NCBI GenBank assembly: GCA_963769935.1
Contig: CAVYNY010000034.1
Span: 32,001 to 96,000, forward strand
Length of the DNA: 64,000 nucleotides
Direction: 5' to 3'
Source of the DNA: an uncultured delta proteobacterium
GTDB taxonomy: Bacteria > Desulfobacterota > Desulfobacteria > Desulfobacterales > JAFDCJ01
Made by a program: the position numbers and the translations under genes
Notes under the pieces: generated by a model
What the model was told of the DNA's origin: nothing
Database searches by the model: none
What the model saw: only the letters and a program-made list of their open reading frames with translations
Part shown: positions 6,565 through 48,023 of the stretch, one piece after another
How positions within the stretch are numbered: position 1 is the first letter of the stretch
How the letters are laid out: the number at the start of each line of letters is the position of its first letter

Positions 6565-8122
6565 TTACTTACTGAATTTTTCTCTAAGTTTGCGGTGAAG
6601 TATCTTGCCGGTCGGCGTGCGCGGCATCTCGTCCGGTTCAATAAATATCACTTCCTTGGGCGTCTTGTAACCGGCTATCTGGCCCCGGCAGCATTCTCTG
6701 ATCATCTCCTCGGTGATGTCTTCCGGCCGGATGCCGTTTTTTTTAACCACAACGGCCGTCACTTTTTCACCCCACTTATCATCAGGCAGTCCGATCACCG
6801 CACAATCCAGAACGCACTCGTGACTGCCGACGATTTCCTCCACTTCGCTGGGATAGACATTTTCACCACCGGTTATGATCATATTTTTTTTGCGGTCCAC
6901 CAGGTGGTAAAAACCATCTTCGTCCCGCCGGGCCATGTCGCCGGCCGAAAAAAAGCCGTCTTTAAACGATTCCGCAGTCAGGTCAGGCAGTTTATAGTAC
7001 TCGTCAAAGAGCATGGGCCCGCGGGAGTACAATTCGCCGATCTCACCATCGGGAACTTCACGGCCGTTGTCATCCAGGATCCGAATAATATCGGAACCGA
7101 GCGCTTCAAAGCCGATGGAGCCGAGCTTTGTCATCTGGTATTCGGGCTTTAAAATGGTTACAATGCCGCCTTCAGTTGAGCCATACGCTTCGTAGAGCTC
7201 CACCCCGGAGAAAAATTCCATGACCGCCTGCTTCATACTCTTGCGTCCGGGCGCGGAGGAGCAGAGCAGCTTGCGAATACTGCTGACATCGCGTTTTTTG
7301 GCATCCTCAGGTGCGTTTAAAATCAGGGTGTAATGGGTTGGAATCAGCGATATGAAAGTAATTTTATGCCTTTCGATGATTTCCAGAATTTCTTCCGGCT
7401 TAAAACCGATGGCCGGATGAATGATAGGCGGAGCCGCCGATGTAGAGAAAGGTGAAGGTAAAATATATGGAGTTGATGTGGCACAAAGGCATCACATTCA
7501 GGCAAACGTCCTTTTCGCTGAACCCGAAATCAACGGCATTGTGCAGATAATAGGCCACGTGGGATTCATGGGAGCGGATAACCCCTTTCGGTTTGCCGGT
7601 GGTACCGGAGGTGTAGATGAGGATCCAGGTGTCCCGGATATCCAGCGCCACATCGGGTTCATCATCGACGGCGTCTTTGATGAATTCTTCATACTCGCGG
7701 TAGCCCGATTCCGGTTTGCCGACCATTACGAAATTTTTCGAAGAAATATTTTGCAGTTTGTCTTTTATGGGCCGCACCGCAGCGGCAAACAGGTCGTGGA
7801 CGACAAAGGCTTTGGCATCCGAATTGTTGACAATGTACTCGACCTCGGGGCCGGCCAGCCGAAAATTTATCGGCACCATAATGATGCCGGTTTTGGCGGT
7901 GGCTAAAAACAGTTCGACAATTTCGATACTGTTTTCGAGCAAGACGGCCAGTTTGTCTCCTTTCTGAAGCCCCAGTGACATCAGACTGTGGGCAAGCCGG
8001 TTCACCCGCTTGTTCAATGCCGGATAGGTAAATGACCGGTCCTTGTCCATTAGTGCAACCGTATCCGGAAACTTTTTAGCGTTTAATTTTTGCATTTGAC
8101 CTAAGTTCAGCCAAAAGGACAT
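6565..8122 (-). CDS. AMP-forming acyl/aryl-CoA ligase (one extra base near 7423 splits it)
   Basis: 7400-8122 has YTSGTTGKPK; shifted frame continues IHPAIGFKPEEILE...SSAPGRKSMKQ into 6565-7236 (YGSTE, PTGK). Confidence 0.9.
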
Positions 8123-8317: not shown

Positions 8318-9565
8318 TTACCTTCTCTCCTCCAGCTGTTCGATAAACGCCTCTACATTGGTCTTGGTCTGCTCGTCGGAGAGCAGGCGCAGGTCGTTCA
8401 AATCCCCCTGAATCGTCAGACTGGGGACGCCCGTTTCCTGCTCAAGTCTTTGCGGCATGCCATAGCGGCAGTTGGAGTTGTTGGGACAGGTTTTGGCGTC
8501 ATGGTAGATAATACCGTCAATTTTGTAGAAATCCAGCATGTCCCGGATATATTTTTCCTTGGCCGCATCGGATCGCACGATAAATAATTCCGTGTAGGCC
8601 TCCGCCATGCTGTTGAACGGATCTTCGGGATTCAACCTGGAGAAAATCCAGCTGTTGCAGTAGGTCGATGCGAGAACGCTGGCCTTGAGTCCGGCAAATA
8701 ACTCGGAATGGGCCCGCAGCCTGCCCCAAACCGGCATACCCTCCCAGTAGATCCTGAAACGCTCGTCGTCGATTGCGCCTTCACCGTCTTTTATTCGTTC
8801 TATCAATTCGGCGAGCAGCATCTTGTAGACGTCCACGGCCGCTTGCGTGCCCCGGCCGACCACGGCCGGCCCCATGAGAGTGGCGGCATCAAAAAAGGTT
8901 AAGGGTGTTGGTTGAGTAGCTGCCGTTTCCAGCACTTTTCGCCAGAGTTCGGAACATTCCCGCGACAGTGCGACGACCCGCTTCAATTCATCCAGCTTAA
9001 AGGATTGGCCGGCGATTTTTTCCAGCTGTCCGGCAAGCTCCTCCATTTGTCTGGCAATGGAACCGACCAGGGCATTGGTAACATCGCCCACGTTGCGGTG
9101 GGTGTAGACGCCCAACACCGGTGCGTTGAATTTTTCCCCGTACCAGGAAAACCAGTCCTGAACATCCCGGCACTGGTTCGTATTAAACACCAGGACATCC
9201 GGCTGCGGGATGCCGGTGATGCCTTCATAGGCCTTGGCCAGCGGGGTCACGCCTTTCAAAAAAGCGCCGATGTCGGCGGTCAGGTAGGAACATATATCCG
9301 GCGAGTAGCCCAGCGCATTGGCCTCCGGGATGAGATCCGATGCCATGCGGGTGGCACCCAGCATGGCGGAATGCGTTTCCGGAAAGTAAACCAGAAACCC
9401 CAGGGCTCTTAATATTTCCGCCGGACCGACACTGGTGCACCAGGCGATTTTGGGGTCACCGGCCTTGGCGGCATCGTTCAGTTCGTAATAATAATCCGCC
9501 ATGTATTTGCTGACGGCAGCGGCGGATTTTAGTTTCTTTCTGCTTATTTTTTTTTCTGAAGGCAT
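8318..9565 (-). CDS. 2-hydroxyacyl-CoA dehydratase / class I benzoyl-CoA reductase catalytic-type subunit (BcrB/HgdA-like)
   Basis: AWCTSVGPAE, YSPDICSY..DIG, PDVL..NTNQC, DGIIYHDAKTC, QTKTNVEAFIE motifs of the HGD-D family. Confidence 0.85.
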   Translation of the reverse strand: MPSEKKISRKKLKSAAAVSKYMADYYYELNDAAKAGDPKIAWCTSVGPAEILRALGFLVYFPETHSAMLGATRMASDLIPEANALGYSPDICSYLTADIGAFLKGVTPLAKAYEGITGIPQPDVLVFNTNQCRDVQDWFSWYGEKFNAPVLGVYTHRNVGDVTNALVGSIARQMEELAGQLEKIAGQSFKLDELKRVVALSRECSELWRKVLETAATQPTPLTFFDAATLMGPAVVGRGTQAAVDVYKMLLAELIERIKDGEGAIDDERFRIYWEGMPVWGRLRAHSELFAGLKASVLASTYCNSWIFSRLNPEDPFNSMAEAYTELFIVRSDAAKEKYIRDMLDFYKIDGIIYHDAKTCPNNSNCRYGMPQRLEQETGVPSLTIQGDLNDLRLLSDEQTKTNVEAFIEQLEERR

Positions 9566-9617
9566 GTGTTCGCACTGAATAAATCTATATGGCTATTTAG
9601 GTTGAAATTTATGCCCG

Positions 9618-9723
9618 GTGGGAGTGGTTTTCCCTCCGGGGCGTAAGCCCTGCGGGCTGGAGGCAACCACGCTTTTAGATGGTGTCCCGACCGAGTTCAT
9701 CGCGGTTGAAAACCGCTCCCACA
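9618..9723. repeat. GTGG-type REP-like pair with a second hairpin inserted in the left arm
   Basis: GTGGGAGTGGTTTTC...GAAAACCGCTCCCAC; CCTCCGGGGCGTAAGCCCTGCGGGCTGGAGG interrupts the left copy; related motif near 45980. Confidence 0.55.
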
Positions 9724-9858
9724 ACACCTTTAACATAGGTTTAGGTACCAAAAAAAGTTTCGTCTTAGATCAAACTGGCCGCTTCGGCGGAAACGCTGAA
9801 CCTTAAATCCTTTGCCCTAAACCTTTTTACCTTTGGCCTTTTACCTTTAACCTTTTTC

Positions 9859-10635
9859 TCAGCTTCCCATCGCATACAGAGCCGCCCCGATCGCGCCGGT
9901 CAGCTGGGGATAGTCCGGCACCAGTATTTTGCGGCCGATAATTTCTTCGGTCATTTTTACCAGGTACGGATTGTGCGCCACGACGCCTCCTGTCATAACT
10001 ACCTTTTCGGTCAACGCATCCATTTCCAGCACACGTTTAACCATGGAATAAAATACCCCTTTTACAATATCCGGCAGTTTTTTGCCCTGTCGGATATTTT
10101 CCAATACCTCGGTGGCGGAAAAAACGGTGCAAAAGCTGCCCAGTTTAACCATGTCTTCGGAACGGCGCGCCAGGGCGTCCATTTCTTCTATGGATACATC
10201 CAGCCGCATGGCCATTTCTTCTAAAAAGGCCCCGGTCCCGGCCGCACACTTGCGATTCATTTTAAAATTGATGCGCAGGCCTCTGTCGTCCAATTTAATA
10301 ATTTTGTTGTCCTGGCCACCAATGTCGATAATGGTTGTCGAAAACGGAAAATATAAAAAGCAGCCTTTGGCATGACAGCCGATTTCCGTTTTAGAGTCAC
10401 CGGCATAGGATACATTTTTGCGTCCATATCCGGTGGAAACCGCCTTGGCAATATCCGATATTTCGGCACCGGCCTTTTTTAACGAGAGTTCCAAGCAAGT
10501 TTGAGCTGTCGCGGAAAAATCCGTACCGGATCGTTGCACGGCCCATCCCAGAAGTGCCCTTTCGCTATCCAGCACGGCCACCTTGGTCCGCGAGGCCCCC
10601 ACATCGGCGCCGACATAGATGGGTCTATAACTCAT
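9859..10635 (-). CDS. ASKHA-type ATP-dependent activase (BcrA/D, BzdP/Q, HgdC family)
   Basis: GADVGASRTK, STGYGR, IDIGGQDNK, NRKCAAGTGAFLE, CTVF, TGGVVAHN, GAIGAA. Confidence 0.92.
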   Translation of the reverse strand: MSYRPIYVGADVGASRTKVAVLDSERALLGWAVQRSGTDFSATAQTCLELSLKKAGAEISDIAKAVSTGYGRKNVSYAGDSKTEIGCHAKGCFLYFPFSTTIIDIGGQDNKIIKLDDRGLRINFKMNRKCAAGTGAFLEEMAMRLDVSIEEMDALARRSEDMVKLGSFCTVFSATEVLENIRQGKKLPDIVKGVFYSMVKRVLEMDALTEKVVMTGGVVAHNPYLVKMTEEIIGRKILVPDYPQLTGAIGAALYAMGS

Positions 10636-21624: not shown

Positions 21625-22758
21625 CTAATCCTTGGGCTTGCCAAGCACGGCTGCCATAAATTCGATATCAAAGGCTGCACCCTGGGCCTGGCGCCTGCGA
21701 AACTCGATGAAATCGATCACATCCTGACCGGTCATCTTTTTGGTATTAAAGGCATTGAAGCCAAGATAGGCTTCGGCGTTCATATTTACGGCCAACCAGT
21801 GGCGGTTGATGGTCTTGGCCTGATCCCAGAAAAATTTCTTTTTCAAGCGGATGCCTTCCACGCTTTTAATGAGACACCCCGGAAAGAGGTTGGTGAACGT
21901 CCACAGAATTTTGTTGACTTCGGCATCCAGAAGCTCGAAATCCGTCCCGGCATTTTTAATATACTCCCGCGCCTTTTTGGCGCCTTCACCGCTTTTAAAT
22001 TCGCCGTAGACGATTTCGCCGTCATCGATGTATTTATCGGTGATGACGGCGGGATTGCGCACCCATTTGCCGTTGTCTTTGATTACCGGCACACATTTGG
22101 ATATCAGCCCCAGCTGTTTCATTTTGTAGGCGCTCCACATCTCGCAGGAGATGCAGTTCCACATGGCCAGTTCTATCGGCAGCATCCAGGGTAGAAAATC
22201 CGAACTGCCGCCGTCAGGCGCCGATCCGTGCCGTGGACCTGCCTGCCCGAATATGGCCAGGTCGCTGGCGATCGCGGTATCACAGGCCATCCCGATCTCC
22301 TGTCCTCCGGCTACCCGCATGCCGTTGACCCGACAGATCGTGGGCTTCTTACAAGTCATTATGCTGTCCACCATGCCGTTAAACAGGTCCATGTAAGCGC
22401 CGTATTCCTGCGGCCGGCCGGAATAGTATTCGGCATATTCTTTGGTATTGCCGCCGGTGCAAAAAGCTTTGTCTCCCGTGGCGGTAAATACGGCTGCGAC
22501 CACAGAGGGATCGGCCGAAGCGCGCTGAAAACCCGCGATCACACCCTTGACCATTTCGGTGGTGTAAGAATTGTATTGTTGGGGATTGTTTAACGTGATC
22601 CAGGCGGAATAGAGATCGTCGATTGGGTGTCCTTGAGGGTCGAGGATGGGTTTTTTTTCGAAGATTACCCCGGGTGCTTTAGCGGAGAAGTGCTCTTCTC
22701 CCCACAAATAATGGTCCTTGATGCCTGACTCTCTTGGCAACCAGTTAATATCGGCCAT
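21625..22758 (-). CDS. oah: 6-oxocyclohex-1-ene-1-carbonyl-CoA hydrolase (Oah/BamA/BzdY)
   Basis: WITLNNPQQYNSYTTEMVKGVI, FCTGGNTKEYAEYYSG, RVNGMRVAGGQEIGMACD, GQAGPRHGSAP. Confidence 0.95.
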   Translation of the reverse strand: MADINWLPRESGIKDHYLWGEEHFSAKAPGVIFEKKPILDPQGHPIDDLYSAWITLNNPQQYNSYTTEMVKGVIAGFQRASADPSVVAAVFTATGDKAFCTGGNTKEYAEYYSGRPQEYGAYMDLFNGMVDSIMTCKKPTICRVNGMRVAGGQEIGMACDTAIASDLAIFGQAGPRHGSAPDGGSSDFLPWMLPIELAMWNCISCEMWSAYKMKQLGLISKCVPVIKDNGKWVRNPAVITDKYIDDGEIVYGEFKSGEGAKKAREYIKNAGTDFELLDAEVNKILWTFTNLFPGCLIKSVEGIRLKKKFFWDQAKTINRHWLAVNMNAEAYLGFNAFNTKKMTGQDVIDFIEFRRRQAQGAAFDIEFMAAVLGKPKD

Positions 22759-35847: not shown

Positions 35848-36450
35848 ATGGCCAAAAACAACTCCAAAGAACACACCCGCGAACGGATCATAAATTCCGC
35901 CAAAAAGCTGTTTGCCGAGCAGGGATACCAGAAGACCACAATTGTGGATATTTCAAAGCGAGCGGGACTCTCCGAGGCGGCGTTATACGATTATTTCCAG
36001 GGCAAAGAGGATCTGCTTCTGACAATTCCCGATCTGTGGGTTTCCGAGCTGGTGCGGGACCTGGAAGAGCAGTTATTCGGCGTAAAGGGATCCGTGAACA
36101 AGCTGCGCAAATATTTGTGGTGGTATATGCGGCGGGTGGAGCAATCCCCTCTGGACGCTAAAATCGTTTATCTGTTTCTGAAAACAAATTCCAATTTTTT
36201 AAATACCGAAGTTTATTCCAATGTTAAGAATTTTTATGCCAATCTCGTCGAAATCTTCGAAGAAGGCCGCAAGAGCGGCGAAATGAAGGCGGATCTCAAT
36301 CCGCGGGCGGCCCGGGACATATTTGTGGGGACCATGGATCATATTATCAGCCGCTGGCTGCTGAAGGATATGTCCTACTCGCTTTTTGACGAATTGGAAA
36401 ATATTTTTGAGCTAATGGTTGGTGCTTTTAAGTCAAATCACTCAAACTAG
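35848..36450 (+). CDS. TetR/AcrR family transcriptional regulator (FadR-like)
   Basis: HTH: AKKLFAEQGYQKTTIVDISKRAGLSEAALYDYFQGKEDL. Confidence 0.93.
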   Translation: MAKNNSKEHTRERIINSAKKLFAEQGYQKTTIVDISKRAGLSEAALYDYFQGKEDLLLTIPDLWVSELVRDLEEQLFGVKGSVNKLRKYLWWYMRRVEQSPLDAKIVYLFLKTNSNFLNTEVYSNVKNFYANLVEIFEEGRKSGEMKADLNPRAARDIFVGTMDHIISRWLLKDMSYSLFDELENIFELMVGAFKSNHSN

Positions 36451-36465
36451 CAGGAGGGTGCAGTT

Positions 36466-38454
36466 ATGGCAAAAACACTATTTGAATGGGATTATTCGGA
36501 CTACCCGGGAGCCAAAAAATACCCGCACCTGTTCAAGCCGATTCAGATCGGCAGTCTCCTTGTGCCCAACCGCATCAAATATGCGGCCACCGAGGAGAAC
36601 CTGAACGGGCGTGATGGATACATCACCGACTCCGGTGTTGCTTACATGCGGGAGAGAGCCAAAGGCGTGGTCGGCGGCCTGTGCTATATGCAGGGGGTCT
36701 ACATGGATAAAGCAGGCAAGGGCCAGGGGTATGTCGGCCAGGCAGCGGCGTGGGACGATAAGTTCATCCCTGGCTTAAAGCGCATTGCCGATGCAATCCA
36801 TGAACAGCGGGCGGTAGCGGGGTTCCAGCTGATGGATTGCGGACGGGTCGGCGCCGTGGAGGTCGAAAGCGGTCACGGTCCTTCGACCGTGCCGCAGCGG
36901 CTGCGAATTTTTAAACCCATGTACGAAATGACCAAGGCCGAGGTCAAAGAGATGGTTCAGCAGCACGTGGCTGCGGCGAAAAGGGGTATCGAAGCCGGCT
37001 TTGATATCATGGAGATTTCCGGCATTGTCGGTTATCTGGTTTCCAACTTTATTTCCAGCTATACCAACCGCCGTACGGATGAATACGGCGGAGATATTCG
37101 CGGCCGAATGCAGGCGGTGGTTGAGATCATTCAAGGCGTAAAAGCGGCTTGCCCGCCGGATATGCCCGTAGGTATCCGTCTGTGTTTGGAAGAACTGCTG
37201 GATGACGTGCGCGGCAATACACCCGAAGAATCGATCGAATCCTACAAAATTGCTGAAGAGGCCGGCGTAGACTATATCAGCTGCACCCTCGGCTGGCAGG
37301 AGTCCATCTATCCGGTCATCAGCCGCGACATTCCCATGGGCAACTGGGTCCACCTGGCCAAACGGGCCAAGGAGCATGTCAAGATTCCCATCCAGATGGC
37401 TTACCGCCTGTTCAAACCGCAGCTGCCCAACGATAAGATAGGCGCCGGGGAACTGGATATTTGGGAAATGTGCCGGCCGATGATTGCCGATCCGTTGATG
37501 CCCAAAAAAGTCCTGGAGGGCCGGGAGGAAGACATTCGGCACTGTGTGGCCTGCAACCTCTGTTTGGCGCGGCTTTTCAGAGACGCCCCCATGACCTGTT
37601 ATATCAATCCGGTCTGCGCCCATGAAGCCAATCCGGAATTTGCCGATCCTGCTCCGGCCGAAGAAGAAAAAGAAATCATGATTGTCGGTGCCGGCCCGGC
37701 TGGCCTGGAATGTGCCTACATGGCCGCCCGCAGGGGCCACGAGGTGCATGTCTATGACAAACGTGGGAACATCGGCGGAACCCTGAATGAGGCTCGCAAT
37801 GCCCCCTATGGGGATGATGAGCTGTGGACCTGTGTGGAGTACCAGAAGGTTATGTGTGATAAAGCCGGCGTCGAGTTCCATCTGGGGACCGAGGTCACCG
37901 AAGAGTTGATTGAGGAAGAAATGCCGGATGCCGTCGTGCTGGCGACCGGTGCGGTTTATTCCGGCCTTGAGGTCGTCGATGGTGATTCCGCCAAAACTGT
38001 TGCGCTGGCCGATGTCATGAGCGGCAAAACCGAAGTCGGTGAAAAAGTGGTCGTGTGGGGCAACCGCAAGCCCGGCATTGGTTGTGCGCTGCACCTGGCC
38101 AAACAGGGCAAGAAAGTCACGCTGGTAGGAAAAGACAAGACGGCCGGCTTTGATGTCAACCCGTCGTTTAAGTGGCGCTATATGATTTATATGCGGCAGA
38201 ACGGCATTACGGCTTACAATGACTGTGAAATTGTGGAAGTGACCGCCGCCGGCATCGTGTTAAAATCTTACGATGGGTACCAGTGGCCGTTAAATTGCGA
38301 CACAATTGTTTTAAGCCAAAGAGAGCCCAACGAGAGTCTGAAAAAAGCGGTTCAATCCGAGGGAATCGAGCTGTTTGTCATCGGTGATGCGCTGATTCCC
38401 CGCAACCTTTCCAGTGCGGTCCATGACGGCTACCGAATCGGGATGCGTATATAA
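36466..38454 (+). CDS. Three-domain old yellow enzyme (FMN, [4Fe-4S], FAD), FadH / aryl-CoA reductase-like
   Basis: LFKPIQIG..VPNRI, EISGIVGYL, NRRTDEYGG, CVACNLC...CYINP, GAGPAG, IGDA. Confidence 0.9.
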   Translation: MAKTLFEWDYSDYPGAKKYPHLFKPIQIGSLLVPNRIKYAATEENLNGRDGYITDSGVAYMRERAKGVVGGLCYMQGVYMDKAGKGQGYVGQAAAWDDKFIPGLKRIADAIHEQRAVAGFQLMDCGRVGAVEVESGHGPSTVPQRLRIFKPMYEMTKAEVKEMVQQHVAAAKRGIEAGFDIMEISGIVGYLVSNFISSYTNRRTDEYGGDIRGRMQAVVEIIQGVKAACPPDMPVGIRLCLEELLDDVRGNTPEESIESYKIAEEAGVDYISCTLGWQESIYPVISRDIPMGNWVHLAKRAKEHVKIPIQMAYRLFKPQLPNDKIGAGELDIWEMCRPMIADPLMPKKVLEGREEDIRHCVACNLCLARLFRDAPMTCYINPVCAHEANPEFADPAPAEEEKEIMIVGAGPAGLECAYMAARRGHEVHVYDKRGNIGGTLNEARNAPYGDDELWTCVEYQKVMCDKAGVEFHLGTEVTEELIEEEMPDAVVLATGAVYSGLEVVDGDSAKTVALADVMSGKTEVGEKVVVWGNRKPGIGCALHLAKQGKKVTLVGKDKTAGFDVNPSFKWRYMIYMRQNGITAYNDCEIVEVTAAGIVLKSYDGYQWPLNCDTIVLSQREPNESLKKAVQSEGIELFVIGDALIPRNLSSAVHDGYRIGMRI

Positions 38455-38468
38455 CAAGGAGGTAAACC

Positions 38469-38996
38469 ATGCCAGTTGATGCCGAAAAAGAAATATCAAA
38501 ACTTTGGCGGGCGATGCACAGCGCCCAGGATGAAATCGGAAAAACATATTATCGGTGGCGTCAGGTTGCCGTTGAATTTGCCGGAGCAGGTGCCAAACCG
38601 CTGGATGTGGCCCTGAGAGCTGCCGAGGTCTTTGGCAAGGATATCGGCAAAAGCATTCTTCCCAGAATGAACTGGTTGAAGGGGGAAGAGGGATTTATGA
38701 TGATTCTGGGCAAAACGCTGGCCGGTCTCTGGAACACCGACGGCGGTCTCGCTACCGTGGAAAAAGGTGCCAACCCGGGTGAAATAATGATCAAATGCAC
38801 CCGGGATCCCTGGCCGTCGTGGGCCAAGGAATTTGGTGTTCCCATGGAAGAGGTCGCGTTGAGCCGCGAGCGGATGTATCAGGCTATTTTAGAGGATGTC
38901 AGCGTCTTTATGAACATTCCGTTGAAGATAGAGTTGCAAAAAGCCATTGCCAGAGGACAGGGCGAGACCGTCATGCGGCTGTACAAGGCGGAGTGA
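38469..38996 (+). CDS. Hypothetical protein, V4R/ATC-hydrolase-like fold suspected
   Basis: Strong RBS AGGAGG 14 nt after the OYE stop; KCTRDPW...AIARGQGET pattern. Confidence 0.7.
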   Translation: MPVDAEKEISKLWRAMHSAQDEIGKTYYRWRQVAVEFAGAGAKPLDVALRAAEVFGKDIGKSILPRMNWLKGEEGFMMILGKTLAGLWNTDGGLATVEKGANPGEIMIKCTRDPWPSWAKEFGVPMEEVALSRERMYQAILEDVSVFMNIPLKIELQKAIARGQGETVMRLYKAE

Positions 38997-39224
38997 AGGC
39001 GCCTGCGGCGCCGGTTGATAGTTGATAGCTGATAGCAAAAGAGTTGATTGAGTTGACTGGTTGAATTGCTGAGTTGATTAGATGATAAAGTTGAGTGGCT
39101 GATTGAGAAATAAGGAGCAGGTCTGATTTTATAACTTCGTTCAATGTCAACCCAATCAACTAGATAAACTCAATGAACTCAACAAACTCAATGAGCTCAA
39201 CGATCCTAATTAACTTAACGAACT

Positions 39225-39279
39225 AAATTTATCCCATGAAATATACGCAGTATCAGCGAAGCGAATTTCATCGGGACGA
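39225..39279 (+). repeat. 55-bp structured element, identical to 13013-13067 in inverted orientation
   Basis: Exact match; stem TCCCATGAAAT / ATTTCATCGGGA. Confidence 0.9.
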
Positions 39280-39341
39280 TCTAAACCATCTAAACGATCA
39301 AAACCAACTTAACGAACATAACGAATACCAGGAGTATAACT

Positions 39342-39548
39342 ATGGCTGCTCAAATTGATTTGGATAAATGCGGCATGTGTGGCGGCTTTACTCAGCCATT
39401 GTGCGTCGAGATCTGCCCGGATTCCGCCATCAGGGTGCAGGACGGCCGGCCGGTTGTGACCGAATTTCTTTGTGAGGACTGCAACGAGTGCGGTTGTGTG
39501 TGCCCGGATCACGCCATCGAGGTGCCGCTGGTGAAAGTTACCTTCTAG
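39342..39548 (+). CDS. 2x[4Fe-4S] ferredoxin
   Basis: CGMCGG....CVEICP and CEDCNECGCVCP; RBS AGGAG. Confidence 0.9.
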   Translation: MAAQIDLDKCGMCGGFTQPLCVEICPDSAIRVQDGRPVVTEFLCEDCNECGCVCPDHAIEVPLVKVTF

Positions 39549-39946
39549 TAATTTCCAGTTGTGCTGGATGCTGGATACTGGATGGACAAAACTAGGGTAT
39601 AAGGTATAAGGTTTAAGGTTCAAGGACCAAGGATAAAGGCGATAGCGCTTTCGCGCCAACTGACAGCTTCTGTCAGTGAAGGACAAAGGCAAAAAGTGCA
39701 CGGTGATTAGGGAAAGGCGAACGGTGTATGGCACAATTCGAACGGTAGATGAAGTCTGCCATCTGTCGTCTATTTCCTCATATGCAAATTCATTTTTACC
39801 GGCCAGCGCCAAACCAAAGTTTCTTCTATGATCAGACCGGCATTTGTTTTGGCCGGCGGAGGGGCTGAAACCAATATCAAATAATCGGCAACTAATGGCA
39901 AAAAACTTTGAGATTATCTGTCTTCTGCGTTTAAAGGGGGTAAGCG

Positions 39947-40369
39947 ATGAGAGTCAACAAACTCGATCATATCTGTATTGCAGTAAAAAATCTGGATGAA
40001 GCGCGTAAAGTCTGGGAACCGGTATTGGGGAAAGAAAAACCGGATGACGCGTACATTGACGAGCCCGAAAAAATTAAGGTTGCCCGATACTGGGTGGGGG
40101 AAGTCGGATTCGAGCTGATGGAATCCACGACGCCCGATGGCGACGTTGCCAGATTTATCGAAAAAAGAGGCGAGGGGGTGATGCTGATCAGTTTTAATGT
40201 CAACAATACCCGTGAAGCCATGGAGGAGCTAAAACAGAAAGACTATCCGTTTATCGGCGGTGCCCGACCGTTCAGGGACTGTGAATTTACGTTCCTTCAC
40301 CCCAACAAAATGAACGGCGTTCTGCTGGAACTTATTGACTACAAGTGGCGGGAGTTTGAAGATCGCTAA
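39947..40369 (+). CDS. VOC family protein, methylmalonyl-CoA epimerase-like
   Basis: DHICIAV, FELMES, FIEKRGEG, FLHP..MNGVLLEL. Confidence 0.85.
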   Translation: MRVNKLDHICIAVKNLDEARKVWEPVLGKEKPDDAYIDEPEKIKVARYWVGEVGFELMESTTPDGDVARFIEKRGEGVMLISFNVNNTREAMEELKQKDYPFIGGARPFRDCEFTFLHPNKMNGVLLELIDYKWREFEDR

Positions 40370-40641
40370 ATGTATGTAAGATGTAAGTTGTAAGTTGTGA
40401 GTTGTATGTTGGTGGTTGTCCGTTGTGGGCTCCAAATAATCCGAGGCGGCATCATATAGACCATCAACACCTGAAACCTAATATGCCCCATGTGCACGCT
40501 TTTCGGCAAACTTGTGTTCAACCCGAATCGTGGGACCCATGACAAATAACAAACAATTCGCAACCCCCAATATACAACTTGCACCGCGCAACATACAACG
40601 CGCAACAAACAACCAACAACCCGCAACACGAGGAACGATTT

Positions 40642-41823
40642 ATGACAATTTCAAAAAAGATTGAAAACATCATCGCCGGGTCTTCATTCATTCGCAGGAT
40701 GTTTGAGGAGGGGGCACGCCTTAAGGCCGAATACGGGGCTGAAAACGTTTATGACTTCAGTCTGGGGAATCCGAATGTGCCGCCGCCGGAAAAATTCAAT
40801 GAAATTCTGCGGGAAACCGTCGGTACCTGCGGGCTTAATGATCACTGCTATATGCCCAACACCGGGTATCCGCTGGTTTGCGGATCGGTGGCCGAATACC
40901 TTGCCAAAGAGCAGCAGGCACCGGTTACCGAAAAAGATGTCATCATGACCTGCGGCGCCTCCGGTGCGTTGAATGTTGCCTTAAAAACCGTTCTTGATCC
41001 AGGCGATGAAGTCGTCACACCGGTTCCCTGTTTTGTCGAATACAAATTTTATGCCGACAATCACGGCGGCGTACTGAAAACAGTTGCGACGAAACCCGAT
41101 TTCGAGCTGGATCCCGATGCCGTTGCGACCGCTATTACGGAAAAGACCAAGGTGTTTTTAATCAACTCACCCAACAATCCCACCGGTCGGGTTTATTCCG
41201 AAGAGAGCCTCAAGACGCTGGGAGAAATTCTGGCGCAAAAGGGCAAAGCCTATAATCGAACAATCTACCTGCTGTCGGATGAACCCTACCGGAAAATCGT
41301 ATACGACGGAATTGAGGTCCCAAGCATATTTAAGGCCTATAAAAACAGTATCATCGGGACTTCCTATTCCAAGGATATTTCCATCCCCGGCGAACGCATC
41401 GGATTCCTGGCCGTGAATCCGGCGGCAACCTACCGCAAAGAATTATTAGCGGCCATGGCGGTGGCCAACCGGATTCTCGGATATGTCAATGCGCCGGCCC
41501 TGATGCAGCGAGTGGTTGCGTGCATGCAGGGGATGAGCGTCGACATTGCCGAATATGCCCGCAAACGGGATGTGCTTTGTGAAGGGCTGGCAGAATTTGG
41601 ATATGAATTTATTAAACCGGCCGGAACCTTCTACCTGTTTCCCCGCTCGCCTATTGCCGATGATGTCGAATTTGTAGATATGTTGAAGGAAGAGCGTATT
41701 CTGGTGGTGCCGGGCAGCGGCTTTAACGGACCCGGCTATTTTCGCATTGCGTTTTGTGTGGATGACAATACCATAAAAAATTCGATGCCGGGATTTGAGC
41801 GGGCGATCAGGAAGTTCAGGTAA
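40642..41823 (+). CDS. Class I PLP aminotransferase (aspartate/aromatic type)
   Basis: INSPNNPTG, SDEPY, SYSKDISIPGERIG; start MTISKK with RBS. Confidence 0.92.
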   Translation: MTISKKIENIIAGSSFIRRMFEEGARLKAEYGAENVYDFSLGNPNVPPPEKFNEILRETVGTCGLNDHCYMPNTGYPLVCGSVAEYLAKEQQAPVTEKDVIMTCGASGALNVALKTVLDPGDEVVTPVPCFVEYKFYADNHGGVLKTVATKPDFELDPDAVATAITEKTKVFLINSPNNPTGRVYSEESLKTLGEILAQKGKAYNRTIYLLSDEPYRKIVYDGIEVPSIFKAYKNSIIGTSYSKDISIPGERIGFLAVNPAATYRKELLAAMAVANRILGYVNAPALMQRVVACMQGMSVDIAEYARKRDVLCEGLAEFGYEFIKPAGTFYLFPRSPIADDVEFVDMLKEERILVVPGSGFNGPGYFRIAFCVDDNTIKNSMPGFERAIRKFR

Positions 41824-41987
41824 AGAATTCCTGAATTGAAGATTGAAGATTGAAAATTGAATATTTGTGGCTGTCGCTCCGCTCCGTCTTTTTTAAAAAC
41901 GAAAAAACACCATCTATAAATTTTGAACCCCTGGCCTAGACTTGATCTGGAGGGATATGCAGAGCGAGAGCGGATAAAGGAAGTCTT

Positions 41988-42197
41988 ATGGGAAAAGTAC
42001 TAAGAGACTACGAGGTTTATCTGGTCTACGTAGACCCGGACCGCTGTGATTCCTGCAAAGAATGCGTGCTGATGTGTCCGACCGATGTATTCGAGATGCC
42101 GCATAAAGCCGTACCGGTGCGGCCGCAGAATTGTCTGGGATGTCTGACGTGTACGGCGGTTTGCAAGTCCAAGGCTGTAATCATAACCGAGATATAA
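41988..42197 (+). CDS. 2x[4Fe-4S] ferredoxin
   Basis: CDSCKECVLMCP and CLGCLTCTAVC. Confidence 0.85.
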   Translation: MGKVLRDYEVYLVYVDPDRCDSCKECVLMCPTDVFEMPHKAVPVRPQNCLGCLTCTAVCKSKAVIITEI

Positions 42198-42343
42198 ATA
42201 ATGGATTGGAGTCCTGGAGTGTTGGGCTAATGGAGTACTGGATAGCGCGGATTTGAATCGATTCAAAATTGCTGCATCGAATTTTATACCCAATACTTCC
42301 ATCACTCCAATGACGCGCTTGGCGCGTGTTTTAAGGTGAACCT

Positions 42344-43693
42344 ATGAGTGATTCAATACTGGTTATCGGCGGCGGGATTGCCGGAATCAACTGTGCCATG
42401 AATGCTGCCAAGTACGGGACCAAAGTCTACCTGATCGACGATACGCCCAGTATCGGCGGAATGATGGCCCGTCTTGACAAGACCTTTCCCACCAACGACT
42501 GCTCCATCTGCATCGAAGCGCCCCAGATGTATGAAGTCGACAATCATGAAAATATAGAAATAATGACCAACACCGAGGTCCGCAAAGTCAAAAAGGTCAA
42601 CGGTACGTTTGAGGTCAAGCTGGTCAAAAAGGCCAGGTATGTCGATGAGGAGAAATGCACCGGCTGCGGCGCCTGCGTGGAAGCCTGCCCGGTAAGTGTA
42701 CCCGATGAAATGGACGGCAAAATCGGCGGAATGCGCAAACTGGTATCGATGGCCTTTCCCCAGGCCGTTCCCAACGTGGTGCGGGTCGATCCCAGTTGCC
42801 GATACGGTGAGATGCGCAAAGAAGGGGCCTGTATCGGCGGATGCGCCGTTGACTGCAGCCAATGCCGTGAATGCCCGATTGCCCTGTGTGTCAAGGCCTG
42901 CGAAAAGGAAGGTAAAAAAGCGATAACCTTATGGCAGTCAAACAAAAACGTAAGCCTCGATGTTAAAAGCATCGTGGTCGCGACCGGCATTAAGAATGCG
43001 CCCCCGGCGGGTGATTTGCTCGGTTATAATGTCTACGAGAATGTTATCACCAACACCGAATTTGAAAGACTCATGAATGCCGGCGGACCGACCTCGGGCC
43101 AAATCATCCGGCCTTCCGACAAGAAACATGCCAAGCAAATTGCCTGGATACAATGCGCCGGGCGCGGTCTGGGCGAGGGCAAGGGGACCCCATATTGTTC
43201 GAAGATCTGCTGCATGATTTCGACCAAGCAAACGATCATCACCAAGGAACACGATGAAACGGTGGAGACAACCATCTTCTACAATGACCTGAAGGCTTAC
43301 GGCAAAGGTTTCTGGGATTTTTACCGCAAGGCCAATGAAAACGGCGTCCGGTATGTCAGGGCCAGGCCTTATGAAGTGAGCGAAGATTCGGCAACCAAAA
43401 ATTTAATCCTGAAATATGAAGATCTGGCAACCGGTGAGCTGCGCCAACACGAAGTCGAGATGCTGGTGCTGGCCACCGGCGTCATTCCCAATGACCGCAA
43501 CAAAAAACTGGCCAAGGTCCTGAAACTGAAGTTGGATGAACTGGGCTATTTTAAAGAAAAGGATCCGCTGCTCTCACCGCTGGAGACCGGGATCGAGGGT
43601 ATTTATCTTTGCGGCGGTGCCACCGGGCCGATTGATATTGCGGAATCGGTGGTTCAGGCGACGGCGGCGAGTATGAAAGCCGTGTTGCATTGA
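42344..43693 (+). CDS. hdrA: Heterodisulfide reductase subunit A-like flavoprotein with ferredoxin insert
   Basis: GGGIAG, DKTFPTNDCSIC, CTGCGACVEACP, QCAGR...YCSKICC, GPIDIAESV. Confidence 0.9.
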   Translation: MSDSILVIGGGIAGINCAMNAAKYGTKVYLIDDTPSIGGMMARLDKTFPTNDCSICIEAPQMYEVDNHENIEIMTNTEVRKVKKVNGTFEVKLVKKARYVDEEKCTGCGACVEACPVSVPDEMDGKIGGMRKLVSMAFPQAVPNVVRVDPSCRYGEMRKEGACIGGCAVDCSQCRECPIALCVKACEKEGKKAITLWQSNKNVSLDVKSIVVATGIKNAPPAGDLLGYNVYENVITNTEFERLMNAGGPTSGQIIRPSDKKHAKQIAWIQCAGRGLGEGKGTPYCSKICCMISTKQTIITKEHDETVETTIFYNDLKAYGKGFWDFYRKANENGVRYVRARPYEVSEDSATKNLILKYEDLATGELRQHEVEMLVLATGVIPNDRNKKLAKVLKLKLDELGYFKEKDPLLSPLETGIEGIYLCGGATGPIDIAESVVQATAASMKAVLH

Positions 43694-43837
43694 ATATTGC
43701 AGATTGAAGAATGAAGATTGTTGGAAGTCGCGGTGCTCCGTCATTCTGATTTTTCTAAAACTGATTCGCCGGAGGCGGACCTTAAATATTCAGTATTCAG
43801 TATTCAATCTTCAATCTCTTTAGGTTAGGAAAATATC

Positions 43838-45907
43838 ATGGGTGATGAAGAAATCCGAATAGGAGTTTTTGTCTGTGACTGTGGTACGAACATCGCAGGG
43901 GTCGTGAATGTACCGGAAGTGGTGGCGTTTGCCAAAACGCTGAAAAACGTCGTCTTTGCCGATGAGGGCCGCTGGTCCTGTTCGGTGGACTATCTGGCCC
44001 GCATGAAAGAATTGATTCGGGAAAATCGGCTCAGCCGGATTGTCATCTCCGCCTGCACGCCCAGAACACATGAGCCCCTTTTTAAGCGCACCGCCAAAGA
44101 GGCCGGCGTCAATCCTTACCTGCTTGAATTTGTGAGCATCCGTGAACAGGTATCCTGGGTCCACATGAAGCAGCCGGAAATTGCCACGGAAAAAGCCAAG
44201 GATCTCATAAAAATGGGGGTGGCCAAGGCCGCCCTGTTGGAAGAGGGCCAGGAGATCAGGCTGCCGGTTAAAACCGATTGCCTGATCATCGGCGGCGGCA
44301 TGGCCGGCATGAATGCCGCATTGAGTGTGGCCAAGCAGGGATTTAATGCCGTTATCGTGGAAAAAGAACCTCAGCTGGGCGGCATTTTAAACCGGATTTG
44401 CTTCATTTCTCATGACAACCACAAAACCCCGGCGGTCAAAGTCGTCCAGGCCAAGGTGGCTGAGGTTCGGTCGAATCGCAACATCAAAATCTACACCGAT
44501 ACCACGATTGAATCGGTTAAGGGATATATCGGTAACTACAAAATAAAGCTGAAAGCCAACGGCAACGGCGCCATGGAAGCCCTTGACATCTCCACCGTCA
44601 TCGTAGCCACGGGGATGCAGGAACTCGAGCCGGAGGGCCAGTTTGAATACGGCAGCGATCCGCGGGTGATCACCCAGCTTCAACTGGACGGCCGACTGAA
44701 GGATAAGCAGATAGGCGATGTTAAAGATGTGGTGATGATAAACTGCGTCAATTCCAAGAATGAGATTCGCGGCTGCTGCAGCATCGGCTGCCACACCTCG
44801 GTTAAAAATGCTGTGGCCCTGAAGCGTCTACGCCCGGAGGCCGATGTTCACGTCTTATATCGTGATATGAGTCTGATCAAGGAAGAGGGGACCGCCCAGC
44901 AGGCCGCCAAGCGTCTGGGAATCAAATTCCTGCGGTTCCCGGACGATCGGTACCCCCGGGTGGTTAAAGATGACGACCAGCTTGCCGTTAAAGTTTTTGA
45001 TTTCCTGCTGGGCCGGGAATTTACAATTCCGGCCGACCTGCTGGTGTTGACAACGGCCTTCAAAGGCGACGATACCGTAGAACAGATCAAGGGGCACCTG
45101 AAAGTTTCCACCAATCCGGACGGCTTTTTCCAGGAATCGCATGTCAAACTGGGTCCACTGGAATTTGCCGCTGACGGTATCTCGCTCGGCGGCTGTGCCA
45201 AGGCGCCCATGACGTTTAAAGAAAGCTGCGAGGAAGGCATCGGGGCGGCCATGAAGGTCTCCATCCCCATGAAAAAAGGCTACATCGAAACCGAAGGCAT
45301 TGTGGCCGACATCGATCTGACGGATTGCAATCAGTGCGGACTGTGCTCAAAGCGCTGCCCTTACAGTGCCATCAAGGTGGACGCGGAAGAAAATCCCGAA
45401 GTCATCAAGGCCCTTTGCAAGGGCTGCGGCTTGTGTGCGGCGGATTGTCCCAAAGAGTGCATCAGCATCGTTCACTACTCCGACGAACAGGTTCTGGCCC
45501 AGGTGGAAGCCGCCCTGGAAGAAGCGCCTGAAAATAAAATAATTGCATTTGTCTGCCACTGGTGCGCGTTGGGCGGCGTGGACATGGCCGGCGTCAGTCG
45601 ACTGCAATATCCATCCAATGCGCGGTTGATCCGCGTGATGTGTTCCGCCCGGGTTTCAATGAAAATGATGCAGCGGCCGTTTGAACTGGGAGCTGCCGGG
45701 GTTCTGGTCGCCGGCTGTGAATTTCCGACCTGCCACTACATTACGGGCAATTACGCGGCCGAAAAGCGCGTGAACCGCACGAAGCGCAAAATTGCCAAAG
45801 CCGGCTTCGATCCGGATAAACTCTGGAATATCTGGTGTTCGGCCGCCGACGGCCCCAAGTTTGCGAATACCATGCGGGATATGACCAGAGAACTTGGATT
45901 GAAGTGA
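43838..45907 (+). CDS. HdrA-like protein fused to an MvhD/FlpD [2Fe-2S] domain
   Basis: GVFVCDCGTNI, ACTPRTHE, GGGMAG, two CxxCxxCxxxCP motifs, then FVCHWC, RVMCSARV, GC...CHY. Confidence 0.9.
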   Translation: MGDEEIRIGVFVCDCGTNIAGVVNVPEVVAFAKTLKNVVFADEGRWSCSVDYLARMKELIRENRLSRIVISACTPRTHEPLFKRTAKEAGVNPYLLEFVSIREQVSWVHMKQPEIATEKAKDLIKMGVAKAALLEEGQEIRLPVKTDCLIIGGGMAGMNAALSVAKQGFNAVIVEKEPQLGGILNRICFISHDNHKTPAVKVVQAKVAEVRSNRNIKIYTDTTIESVKGYIGNYKIKLKANGNGAMEALDISTVIVATGMQELEPEGQFEYGSDPRVITQLQLDGRLKDKQIGDVKDVVMINCVNSKNEIRGCCSIGCHTSVKNAVALKRLRPEADVHVLYRDMSLIKEEGTAQQAAKRLGIKFLRFPDDRYPRVVKDDDQLAVKVFDFLLGREFTIPADLLVLTTAFKGDDTVEQIKGHLKVSTNPDGFFQESHVKLGPLEFAADGISLGGCAKAPMTFKESCEEGIGAAMKVSIPMKKGYIETEGIVADIDLTDCNQCGLCSKRCPYSAIKVDAEENPEVIKALCKGCGLCAADCPKECISIVHYSDEQVLAQVEAALEEAPENKIIAFVCHWCALGGVDMAGVSRLQYPSNARLIRVMCSARVSMKMMQRPFELGAAGVLVAGCEFPTCHYITGNYAAEKRVNRTKRKIAKAGFDPDKLWNIWCSAADGPKFANTMRDMTRELGLK

Positions 45908-46222
45908 AGTTAATAGTTATTGGTTATTAGTTATTTGCAGGCCTCGTTCTTCGGGGATTCCCGGCAGTTGTAATTGGATTGTGGGAGCGGTTTGCAACCG
46001 CGAATAAAGCGATAGCATTCCTCAATTTTATGAAAGATTTTTTTATCACGAAAACACGAAATCTAGAAATCACGAAAATTATCTTTTATGCTTTTCGTGT
46101 TTTCGCCTTCGTAGAATTCTCTTTTTTGGTTCTCCGCTTATTCGGGATTTATGCTTTACTCCAACCGGCTTGTCCGGGTTAAGCGTTCCCTATCGGCAAG
46201 TGCGCTGAAAGGCTAAGTTTCT

Positions 46223-48023
46223 ATGACAAACACGGAAAGATTCGCAGAGAGGTTTAACCAAATAGAGATGTTCCGATACTGCGAGCAGTGCGGGCGCTGC
46301 AGTTCGGCCTGTCCGATTACCGGTATCAACGGGTTTAATATTCGACGATTGGTCCGGCACGTCGAACTGGATTTGATCGACGAAATTGCCGCCTCCCCGA
46401 TGCCCTGGTTTTGCGCCACGTGCGGACGGTGCGAGGACGCCTGCCCCAATGGGATAAAAATTCTGGATATAACCCGAACGCTTCGCAGCGTCGGGCCTGG
46501 GGAACTGGTTCCCGAAAGACCTTTGTGTGTCAATGCCTGCCCGGCCGGTATCGATATTCCCGGCTATTTAAGATGCATCGCGCAGGGTAATATGGATGAG
46601 GCCTGCCGATTAATCATCGAAAAAGCCCCTTTTCCGGGAATCCTGGGCCGGGTCTGCACCCATCCCTGCGAGACCGCCTGCAAGCGCGGTGAAGTCAACC
46701 AGCCCATCGCCATCTGTGCGGCCAAAAGGTATGCAGCTGATAAAGCCGGCGATTTGACCGGCTGGATGTCCCAGACAGCACCCGACAGCGGGCATAAGGT
46801 GGCGGTGATCGGCGCCGGTCCGGCCGGCTTGACCGCTGCCTTTTTTCTGAAAAAAAAGGGTCACCAGGTTACCATCTTAGAAGCCCGGCCCAAAGCGGGC
46901 GGTATGCTGCGCTATGGGATTCCTTATTACCGGCTGCCCGCCGAGATCTTAGATAAAGAAATCGATCAGATTTTAAGCACCGGTATCGAACTGAAGCCGA
47001 ACCTGAAGCTGGGCGTCGATTATGAAATCGAGCAGTTAAAAAATGACGGCTTTGAAGCCGTTTTCATCGCTGTGGGCGCCCAGCTGAGCCGCAGGATCGA
47101 ACTGGAAGGATCCGACCTGCCGGAGGTTCATTGGGGGGTTGAGTTTTTAGCAGCTGTGTCGGAAGGCGAAAATGTTCCGGTCAAAGGCCGGATCGTCGTT
47201 ATCGGCGGCGGCAACGTGGCGGTGGATGTAGCGCTCACGGCCATCCGGCTTGGGGCGAAAAATGTAACGCTTGCCTGTCTGGAAAGCGAGGAGCAAATGC
47301 CGGCCAATCCCTGGGAAATCGAACAGGCCCGCGAAGAAGGGCGTGGAGATGCTGTACTCCTGGGGGCCTGCGCGGATCATGGCAAACGGCGGCAAGGTCA
47401 GCGGACTCGAACTGGTGCGCTGCACATCGGTTTTTGACGAGCAGGGCAAATTTTGTCCTTATTTCGATGACGCCAAGACCACCGTAGCGGCGGATCAGGT
47501 TATTTTAGCCATCGGCCAGGCCAGCGAGACGGCCTTTTGCAAAGATTTTTGTTTTCTCGATGATCAGCAATCCCTGCCGGTTGAAAAAGGGTTGATAGCC
47601 GTTGACAAAAAAACCCAGGAGACCGCAATAAAAGGCGTCTTTGCCGGCGGTGATGCGGCCAACGGCCCGGCGACGGTGATCGAAGCCATTGCCGCCGGCC
47701 GTCGGGCGGCGGTTTCGATCGATAAGTACTTGGGCGGAAACGGCGTATTGGAAGTGGGAAGTTGGAAAGCGGAAGGCGGAAGTGAAGGAAGTGCGAATGC
47801 GGAAGCCGGAAGTTCTGGGTGTGGAAATGGTTATGACGGCAGGAGAGAAGCAAGATTTGCAGATTTGAAAAGGGTTGATGCGCCGACCCTGCCGGTTGCA
47901 GAAAGAAACGGCGGTTTTGGTGAGGTGGAGCTTTGTTTCCGCGACGAACAGGCGCTGGAAGAAACCCGTCGTTGCCTGCAGTGCGACCTGGAAATATGCC
48001 TGGCAAAAGCCAAACGATCTTAA
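46223..48023 (+). CDS. HdrC-like Fe-S domain fused to a GltD/NfnB-like NAD(P)H:FAD oxidoreductase (extra G at 47339-47341)
   Basis: CEQCGRCSSACP, CATCGRCEDACP; CVNACP, GRVCTHPCE..C, GAGPAG, GGGNVAVD; shifted frame EEGVEM...FAGGD...RCLQCD. Confidence 0.88.

Follow-up and report, generated by a model that had tools for sequence, protein, structure and literature searches.

The question raised by positions 35,848-48,023 of a 64,000-nucleotide stretch from an uncultured delta proteobacterium (assembly GCA_963769935.1, contig CAVYNY010000034.1, positions 32,001 to 96,000; hereafter the window) is which coenzyme A (CoA) ester is reduced by the old yellow enzyme (OYE) encoded there, and how electrons reach it. 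In the available text of PMC13365417, PMC13101529 and PMC12016498, type III aryl-CoA reductases are reported for polycyclic aromatic hydrocarbons (PAHs) only, with an in vivo donor that is unknown or probably ferredoxin; their low-potential electron source in the cell is likewise called unknown in that of PMC13101529 and PMC6502838. The cluster studied here is a real and conserved module that combines class III catalysis with class II-type electron wiring, and it is apparently undescribed. The literature searched, which covered few subscription journals and texts available in part, contained no described OYE-HdrA module and no gene for an anaerobic 2-aminobenzoyl-CoA reductase. On the sequence evidence, we see an even chance that the cluster product is a 2-aminobenzoyl-CoA (anthraniloyl-CoA) reductase that needs no ATP and draws its electrons from ferredoxin-driven HdrA bifurcation. 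Such an enzyme would catalyse the final aromatic step when indole, tryptophan and indoleacetate are broken down anaerobically.

Comparison with the Protein Data Bank (PDB) gives the OYE 439 bits to 2-naphthoyl-CoA reductase (NCR) versus 261 bits to E. coli FadH, and NCR is also the best structural match of its AlphaFold model (pLDDT 81.7; TM 0.86; 36-37% identity in the structural alignment). The FMN, [4Fe-4S] and FAD domains are all present, with the cluster ligands C360/C363/C366/C378 kept in 83/83 orthologs. NCR residues described in PMC6502838 were placed by hand on the OYE-NCR sequence alignment. Inspection of this alignment reveals that I194-V195-G196-Y197, Y82, R245, T280, G282, Y320, E341, F379, D649 and the four cluster cysteines of NCR are retained; as described there, Y320 contacts the thioester carbonyl and E341 lowers the FMN potential (PMC6502838). 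Changes from NCR to the OYE are V38 to E43, N247 to C240, H284 to Q278 and F375 to L367. On the FAD side, E446, E541 and Q545 become T439, K535 and G539, and D649 alone is kept of the acidic low-potential set. The second Rossmann glycine motif appears broken, reading WGNRKPG, and the blocking W459 of NCR has no Trp counterpart. Across orthologs, E43, Y89, SGIVGY, R238, C240, Q278, Y313, E334, R369 and W570 are kept in 81-83 of 83 sequences, among them Y190 (the proton-donor Tyr), R238 and E334 (the Glu beside the flavin Arg) in all 83. K535 is found in 78/83. D124 was ruled out as a specific acid, since it is His in 31/83 orthologs.

The original prediction held that the segment EISGIVGYL (OYE residues 183-191) lacks the His pair of classical OYEs, as in the FadH branch. 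The first part stands, the pair being replaced by S185/V188 in 83/83 orthologs; the second does not, as the motif is the I-V-G-Y of NCR and not the S-E-G-Y of FadH. The tree used to examine relationships was built with FastTree from 180 sequences, of which 34 came from the window and loci and 146 from a set of 150 representatives. It left out NCR itself, DHNCR, DCO and AprB-E, and P0122 (726 bits to NCR) stands in for NCR. Eighteen module OYEs form one clade (support 1.0), whose sister is a group of 12 OYEs at 43-49% identity (support 0.975). The NCR proxy lies outside both, within an enclosing clade of support 0.999. The OYE was ruled out as an NCR ortholog by this separate clade and by a pocket with E43/L367/Q278 instead of V38/F375/H284, and as a FadH 2,4-dienoyl-CoA reductase by the missing S-E-G-Y site and NADPH glycine motif and by its lower score to FadH. 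Judged by its residues, the OYE is NCR-like, neither NCR nor FadH; its FMN side looks low-potential, and its FAD side does not copy that of NCR. It shares with NCR the three-domain architecture, the IVGY site, Y82, Y197, Y320 and E341 and the lack of an NAD(P)H glycine motif, and differs in its clade, its polar pocket (E43, Q278, R369), its lost FAD acidic residues and its fixed company of a V4R-fold neighbour, ferredoxin and Hdr module. The family is widespread in sediment metagenomes, where its usual annotation is 2,4-dienoyl-CoA reductase.

A scan of GTDB genomes confirmed 120 loci. Locus counts here and below rest on the best 80 of the 120 (58-92% OYE identity), and the genome and locus sets behind the linkage counts overlap partly and, being kin, do not count as independent. 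In 70/70 loci with room, the OYE is directly followed by the small protein and ferredoxin 1. The HdrA pair is present in 49/80 loci and in 36 of the 39 having at least 8 kb downstream; in the three long loci without it, an HdrA ortholog is located elsewhere in the same genomes. Among 61 related genomes, the HdrA ortholog occurs in 13/14 OYE carriers versus 0/47 others, and it recurs in 41/46 further carriers. The OYE-Hdr link persists through inversion and transposition, and in archaea. The predicted OYE-hdrA linkage is thus conserved far beyond chance, with synteny in bacteria and archaea. Supported, then, is a putative OYE of NCR type that acts on CoA esters and has an HdrA/MvhD module of its own, conserved with it. 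Record titles among the best 80 loci name Desulfobacteraceae, Desulfatiglandales, Dehalococcoidia, Thermoplasmata, Methanomassiliicoccales, Methanomethylicia and Nezhaarchaeales; close homologs are labelled Desulfobacterales. No cultured carrier is named among the 120+120 homologs listed or the best 80 of 120 loci.

The Hdr module consists of two halves. Half A carries an FAD domain, a C53/C56 pair and an inserted ferredoxin domain, and half B carries an N-terminal domain, a second FAD domain, a C-terminal ferredoxin and a fused MvhD. By hand count, E241 and K295 of half A correspond to E356 and K409 of 5odc, which we take to be bifurcating-flavin residues; together with C53/C56 they are retained in 43/43 orthologs. 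The cysteine set and K323 of half B are retained in 35-36/36. The sequence features of a bifurcating-type HdrA are thus present, namely Lys/Glu at the FAD, ligands for an adjacent [4Fe-4S], CxxC, MvhD and both the inserted and the C-terminal ferredoxin domain; roles of the Lys and the CxxC in HdrA-type bifurcation are given in the available text of a preprint on class II benzoyl-CoA reductase (BCR II; 10.64898/2026.04.10.717634). The two-gene layout of HdrA and HdrA-MvhD resembles QmoAB. In contrast to QmoAB, half A retains the inserted ferredoxin domain and no QmoC or apr genes lie alongside. Halves A and B show 32% and 24% identity to this genome's QmoAB-like pair versus 34% and 42% to fused two-FAD HdrAs. 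A QmoAB or QmoABC assignment was ruled out by the former values, with QmoC and apr also absent from the recurring neighbours of the 80 loci. The grouping with QmoAB that the original prediction had named as a possible objection is therefore not what is found.

Which way electrons run through this module is best judged against BCR II. In the cryo-electron microscopy structure, as far as the preprint text was available, BamE is a fused HdrA dimer and electrons enter via its C-terminal ferredoxin domain and the MvhD-like BamF; high-potential electrons exit to the HdrBC-like BamD, and low-potential electrons pass via the inserted ferredoxin domain to BamC and BamB (bioRxiv 10.64898/2026.04.10.717634). 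In most bacteria an HdrC-GltD gene adjoins the HdrA pair; its place is taken by HdrC plus HdrB in one genome (G366) and by a BamD/HdrD-like HdrC-CCG in archaea. Because the NAD(P) domain is swapped for disulfide-type domains in relatives, HdrC-GltD would occupy the slot that is the high-potential output in the available description of BCR II. In this position NAD(P)+ is more likely to accept electrons, with reduced ferredoxin as their donor and ferredoxin 1 as the analogue of BamC; the earlier assignment of NAD(P)H as electron input is not supported. In the proposed scheme, reduced ferredoxin would enter through the C-terminal ferredoxin and MvhD of half B, and the FAD of half A would bifurcate. 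High-potential electrons would exit via HdrC to NAD(P)+ on GltD (or to HdrB or HdrD-like proteins in relatives), and low-potential electrons would run from the inserted ferredoxin domain through ferredoxin 1 to the FAD, [4Fe-4S] and FMN of the OYE. The module would share with BamBCDEFGHI the logic of a fused HdrA dimer (split into two genes here), the MvhD adaptor, the HdrBC-type slot and a ferredoxin between HdrA and the catalytic unit. It differs in that the cluster has no tungsten enzyme and no BamGHI, the window HdrA and MvhD frames contain no selenocysteine, GltD is fused to HdrC in place of BamD, and the host retains its own BamBCDEF.

What the OYE might reduce is suggested by its surroundings. 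Recurring neighbours are hydantoinase A/B, B12 mutase, CoA transferase, trios of the xanthine dehydrogenase (XDH) family, an HAD-ECH fusion, TrpB2, IOR and SerA/SerC, which by gene content are the anaerobic indoleacetate (iaa) gene set and an indole-through-tryptophan route. Hydantoinase, XDH, hydratase and thiolase each have roles in the iaa pathway. The neighbouring ligase, CoA transferase, B12 mutase and dehydrogenase match IaaB, IaaL, IaaGH and IaaF of Aromatoleum aromaticum as assigned in the available text of PMC8360864, where a GGG motif is diagnostic for IaaF. In contrast to the module, that system is said there to reduce the ring by benzoyl-CoA reductase, and the same text describes no OYE-Hdr module (PMC8360864). 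The GGG motif is found in 10 of 13 locus acyl-CoA dehydrogenases examined, including those adjoining the OYE in L160, L167, L090, L095 and L176, and the gene neighbourhoods combine it with a mutase, a CoA transferase and a ligase. In G123 a full iaa-like island surrounds the module. The module of G366 has hydantoinase on one side and IOR, TrpB2, HAD-ECH, XDH, ligase and TRAP genes on the other, and hydantoinase A/B immediately precede the OYE in L090 and L095. In this genome, the contig that carries the module also has HAD-ECH, TrpB2, SerA and IOR, about 41-49 kb beyond it.

A hydantoinase-B marker taken from this genome's iaa-like island occurs in 14/14 module genomes versus 16/47 others, and at 61% identity or more in 29/35 further bacterial carriers. 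In a phylum sample, with only four candidates scored per genome, it is present in 3/3 carriers versus 33/297 others. Marker and module share one contig within 70 kb in 11/46 genomes. This context does not support the original prediction of a generic substrate for the oah/dch operon 13 kb away, as it points instead to an indoleacetate/tryptophan route. TrpB2 with IOR, in some loci with SerA/SerC or an aminotransferase, adjoins iaa genes at G000:C34:120726-129362 (L147), L049 and L163-L166. This pattern suggests that indole is captured as tryptophan (indole plus serine) and degraded via indolepyruvate and indoleacetyl-CoA, as a putative route. L163:16058-17764 was rejected as serA. The iaa-like island of this genome (G000:C36:56260-81695; L145, L146) has no IaaF ortholog; beside it there is instead an acyl-CoA dehydrogenase of the ordinary YEG kind, along with a carboxyltransferase and a protein of the crotonase family.

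Anthranilate leads as the candidate substrate because the module is repeatedly placed among genes of indole and tryptophan breakdown. The iaa route runs through 2-aminocinnamoyl-CoA to beta-oxidation in the text available (PMC8360864), which would form 2-aminobenzoyl-CoA. Conversion of this ester by 2-aminobenzoyl-CoA reductase is reported for anaerobic Azoarcus evansii in the part of a review that was available (PMC4539516). The proposed substrate is thus shared with the Azoarcus evansii reductase and with the aerobic 2-aminobenzoyl-CoA monooxygenase/reductase; that text names no gene for the anaerobic activity, and the aerobic enzyme needs O2 (PMC4539516).

With the His pair lost and the distal carbonyl site of NCR kept, hydride addition at ring C4 is more plausible than at C2. 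The aerobic 2-aminobenzoyl-CoA monooxygenase/reductase has an OYE-like domain. In the proposed reaction, FMNH- would add hydride at ring C4 and Y190 would protonate the neighbouring carbon. The resulting amino-dienoyl-CoA enamine would lose ammonia by hydrolysis, perhaps aided by the VOC protein, giving 6-oxocyclohex-1-ene-1-carbonyl-CoA, which would go to Oah and bypass benzoyl-CoA reductase. From formation energies, ring reduction plus hydrolysis is roughly estimated to lie near -410 to -490 mV overall, within NCR's range, and plain deamination to benzoyl-CoA near -100 mV. A step in the former range would be demanding enough to explain a dedicated electron supply. Reductive deamination to benzoyl-CoA is the alternative chemistry, over which we slightly favour ring reduction. 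One genome (G091) holds the module and iaa genes with no Oah match at E 1e-20 and no bamBCDE; it was discounted as evidence for deamination to benzoate, as HdrA half A is also missing there. The module product may feed Oah, which in module genomes is matched in 31/50 above the cut-off and in 39/50 at E 1e-60.

The stronger proposal is that of a hybrid, fourth route of ring reduction, in which a flavoenzyme free of metal cofactor and ATP, with its own HdrA bifurcation, would dearomatise and deaminate 2-aminobenzoyl-CoA straight to the Oah substrate. We regard it as possible but doubtful. If true, sediment bacteria and archaea that live on tryptophan and indole would bypass benzoyl-CoA reductase by this route, which would also reveal the first natural electron supply of a type III aryl-CoA reductase. 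An anthraniloyl-CoA reductase of this family would carry type III chemistry beyond PAHs, to a monocyclic aromatic that arises when protein decays. One expressible gene set makes testable both the low-potential electron source of type III enzymes and the 2-aminobenzoyl-CoA enzyme of strict anaerobes.

Several observations weigh against the anthraniloyl-CoA reading. A donor-side dehydrogenase is missing from the cluster, which makes the electron input an assumption. Most of the low-potential FAD features of NCR are lost (E446, E541 and Q545 to T, K and G; no W459), and H284 is Q. Hydride attack at C4 would set the invariant E43 (NCR V38, near flavin N5) closer to a para than to an ortho substituent. 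The marker contrast is weak within the genus (13/13 versus 7/10, p 0.07, among kin that are not independent), and 33 of 36 iaa-marker genomes in the phylum sample have no module, which is therefore not obligatory. In this genome the module and the iaa-like island are on different contigs (the island on C36), and an IaaF ortholog was not found (best match 39-40%). On the single-chromosome assemblies G068, G075, G091 and G100, module and hydantoinase genes are hundreds of kb apart; the hydantoinases of G100 have no adjoining mutase or dehydrogenase. Hydantoinase matches reach just 31-35% in 8 of 11 archaeal carriers, and an Oah match was not found in 11/50 module genomes at E 1e-60.

Best surviving among the other explanations is that the OYE reduces or de-functionalises a different aryl-CoA, which could be 4-amino- or 4-hydroxybenzoyl-CoA or a heteroaromatic ester, indole-carboxyl-CoA among them; the iaa link would then reflect shared aromatic-amine islands. 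The NCR/DCR geometry favours para attack, and NCR is described as defluorinating 6-F-naphthoyl-CoA by hydride addition (PMC6502838). The invariant E43 could protonate a para leaving group, and a 4-aminobenzoyl-CoA deaminating reductase is only putative in the available text of PMC7500099. The recurring neighbours, however, are iaa, TrpB2 and IOR genes rather than phenol or aniline carboxylases, and the candidate for 4-aminobenzoyl-CoA in D. anilini is described as a Mo enzyme (PMC7500099); we consider this explanation unlikely.

Next in order is reverse flow. The OYE would then oxidise (aromatise) a dihydro-CoA ester and pass the electrons to MvhD in the manner of a hydrogenase, or electrons of NAD(P)H and ferredoxin would be confurcated to a less demanding acceptor, for example an enoyl-CoA. 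In its favour, MvhD finds no other donor enzyme in the cluster, the residues around the FAD are basic and not acidic (the K535 position above), and NCR is described as also working in reverse (PMC6502838). The counterpart of E341 and the loss of the His pair instead indicate a low-potential FMN, and in the available account of BCR II the ring-reducing module docks via ferredoxin at the low-potential output (10.64898/2026.04.10.717634). Reverse flow, too, strikes us as rather unlikely.

It is improbable, in our judgement, that the Hdr genes balance indole-pathway redox (ferredoxin from IOR, electrons from XDH/ETF) and that the OYE takes ferredoxin 1 electrons without bifurcation. Sister OYEs (43-50%) do retain ferredoxin without an Hdr pair in 12 loci fetched, the pair lies elsewhere in 3/39 long loci, G091 has no half A, and NCR is described as working without energetic coupling (PMC12016498). 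Against such a role, this type of HdrA and the OYE occur together almost one to one, also in genomes whose iaa island lies far away.

The original prediction put a flavin-only aryl/enoyl-CoA reductase in the place of BamBC. Tungsten BamB/BamC are absent from the cluster. A check for bamB elsewhere found bamBCDEF on contig C22 of this genome (BamB 1256 bits to PDB 4z3w), which does not support such a replacement. BamB is matched (E 1e-100) in 29/50 module genomes, and among archaeal carriers, class I subunits of the Bzd type pass the cut-off in G099, G100 and G104. One exception is G068: oah is present there, but the proteins tested include no reductase recognisable as class I or II (BamB matches do not exceed 36% identity, and none of the five HGD-type subunits among those proteins reaches a Bcr/Bzd cut-off). 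An NAD(P)H-driven benzoyl-CoA reductase is the least probable of the explanations: AprE, an OYE, is described as reducing a benzenoid ring without ATP (PMC13365417), G068 lacks recognisable BamB/Bcr/Bzd matches among the proteins tested and the module lies near bamB genes in G064 and G065, but most carriers, like this genome, come with BamB or BzdNOQ of their own, an NAD(P)H donor would leave the cluster with no high-potential acceptor, and benzoyl-CoA is stated to need -622 mV versus about -440 mV for NCR FMN (PMC6502838).

Other reductase genes were seen in passing. A single HadB/BcrB-like subunit and one activase stand behind the oah-thiolase-dch-IOR operon at window positions 8318-10635, below all Bcr/Bzd cut-offs, and similar single subunits occur in G068, G075 and G099. 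The stretch G000:C36:35663-43593 (L144) holds BzdQ (above cut-off) and activase genes with no BzdN/O subunit listed, an 840-aa Fe-S/HdrC/GltD protein that is the closest paralog of the window HdrC-GltD (53%), and a 183-aa protein without an NCBIfam match. In L133, L134 and L143 (G065, G064, G071), bamDEF has a pair of BamB paralogs nearby, whose two types are about 60% identical; each paralog is accompanied by a BamC-like gene in G064 and G065. A search for 4-hydroxybenzoyl-CoA reductase reached the cut-off in 0/5 genomes and is uninformative.

Coordinates of the cluster genes and of oah within the window
Feature	Position	Strand	Basis or occurrence
TetR-family regulator	35848..36450	+	Pfam TetR_N + TetR_C_4; 39/80 loci, every one with OYE at least 75% identical
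OYE, FMN/[4Fe-4S]/FAD, three domains, 662 aa, NCR-related; predicted catalytic subunit	36466..38454	+	Best PDB match NCR 6QKG, E 2e-130
175-aa V4R/H-NOX/Bet3-fold protein, ATC-hydrolase-like; likely partner subunit	38469..38996	+	Fold model; position after OYE
Ferredoxin 1, two Fe-S motifs; predicted carrier to OYE, BamC analogue	39342..39548	+	Fer4; 70/70 loci with room; 8 Cys invariant 72/72
VOC/glyoxalase-fold protein; candidate enamine tautomerase/deaminase	39947..40369	+	TIGR03081, 78.5 versus cut-off 114.95 bits
Pyridoxal-phosphate (PLP) aminotransferase, PRK06836 family; accessory	40642..41823	+	NCBIfam above cut-off; 19/80 loci only
Ferredoxin 2; candidate input carrier to HdrA/MvhD	41988..42197	+	Fer4; 38/80 loci
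HdrA half A, 449 aa, FAD domain and inserted ferredoxin domain, equivalent to BamE N-half; predicted bifurcating flavin	42344..43693	+	
HdrA half B (HdrA-MvhD), 689 aa, equivalent to BamE C-half plus MvhD adaptor	43838..45907	+	
HdrC-like di-cluster protein fused to GltD-like NAD(P) flavoprotein, frameshifted; predicted high-potential output	46223..48023	+	
oah, 6-oxocyclohex-1-ene-1-carbonyl-CoA hydrolase; possible product consumer, outside module	21625..22758	-	TIGR03200, 563 versus 464 bits

The co-directional, TetR-led layout described originally was borne out for every gene named, and two genes omitted from that description, the VOC (methylmalonyl-CoA-epimerase-like) gene and the PLP aminotransferase, were added. 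In the window, hdrC-gltD is broken into two frames (46223-47437 and 47271-48023) by an extra base, placed at 47341-47342 against four of five relatives and at 47337 against the fifth. Near-identical contigs from runs X1 and X2, of two studies, have no base at 47337, so the frameshift is an assembly error and the gene is intact in the population. In relatives HdrC-GltD is unbroken at 577-644 aa. Split genes for an acyl-CoA ligase, HAD-ECH, TrpB2 and an HGD subunit, at window positions 6565-8122, G000:C34:120726-124359 and G000:C20:162809-163855, suggest frequent indel errors in this assembly. Spacers in the cluster measure 144-398 bp, and a promoter/terminator scan performed at chance (13 seen versus 14.9 expected; 16 versus 19.2), so a single transcript is not established. 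RNA-library contigs of relatives span most of the cluster; they cannot show transcription or one message and were not used as evidence.

The 175-aa protein has no Pfam match, and its Atlas clusters carry the name ATC hydrolase; its model (pLDDT 89) matches Bet3/H-NOX/PoxR folds at TM about 0.5. The VOC gene is found in 57/80 loci, and not in the Thermoplasmata/Methanomethylicia-type loci L089-L099 and L103. It was ruled out as the pathway's methylmalonyl-CoA epimerase, being below cut-off, with a true epimerase alongside in G123. A VOC ortholog (71%) lies immediately upstream of bamBCD at L177:16323-20000 (G373), where the module is absent; this adjacency fits a role after ring reduction, but a VOC gene was not found in the archaeal loci just named.

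Among related OYEs, a second sister group (L168-L176; 43-47%; F89, H278, F313, Y371) usually occurs with ferredoxin, and in L176 an IaaF-motif dehydrogenase and ETF/FixC adjoin the OYE. The iaa marker is present in 11 of 16 genomes with 43-50% OYEs. A second OYE-HdrA pairing is seen in L179 (G317), where an AOR-family gene comes directly after an OYE (38%, near the NCR proxy in the tree), and genes for an Fe-S protein, a BamE-like HdrA of 1032 aa and MvhD come next. Low-complexity repeats form the spacers at window positions 39020-39340, 40370-40640 and 41833-41895, the last of which matches many unrelated contigs and is thus a dispersed repeat.

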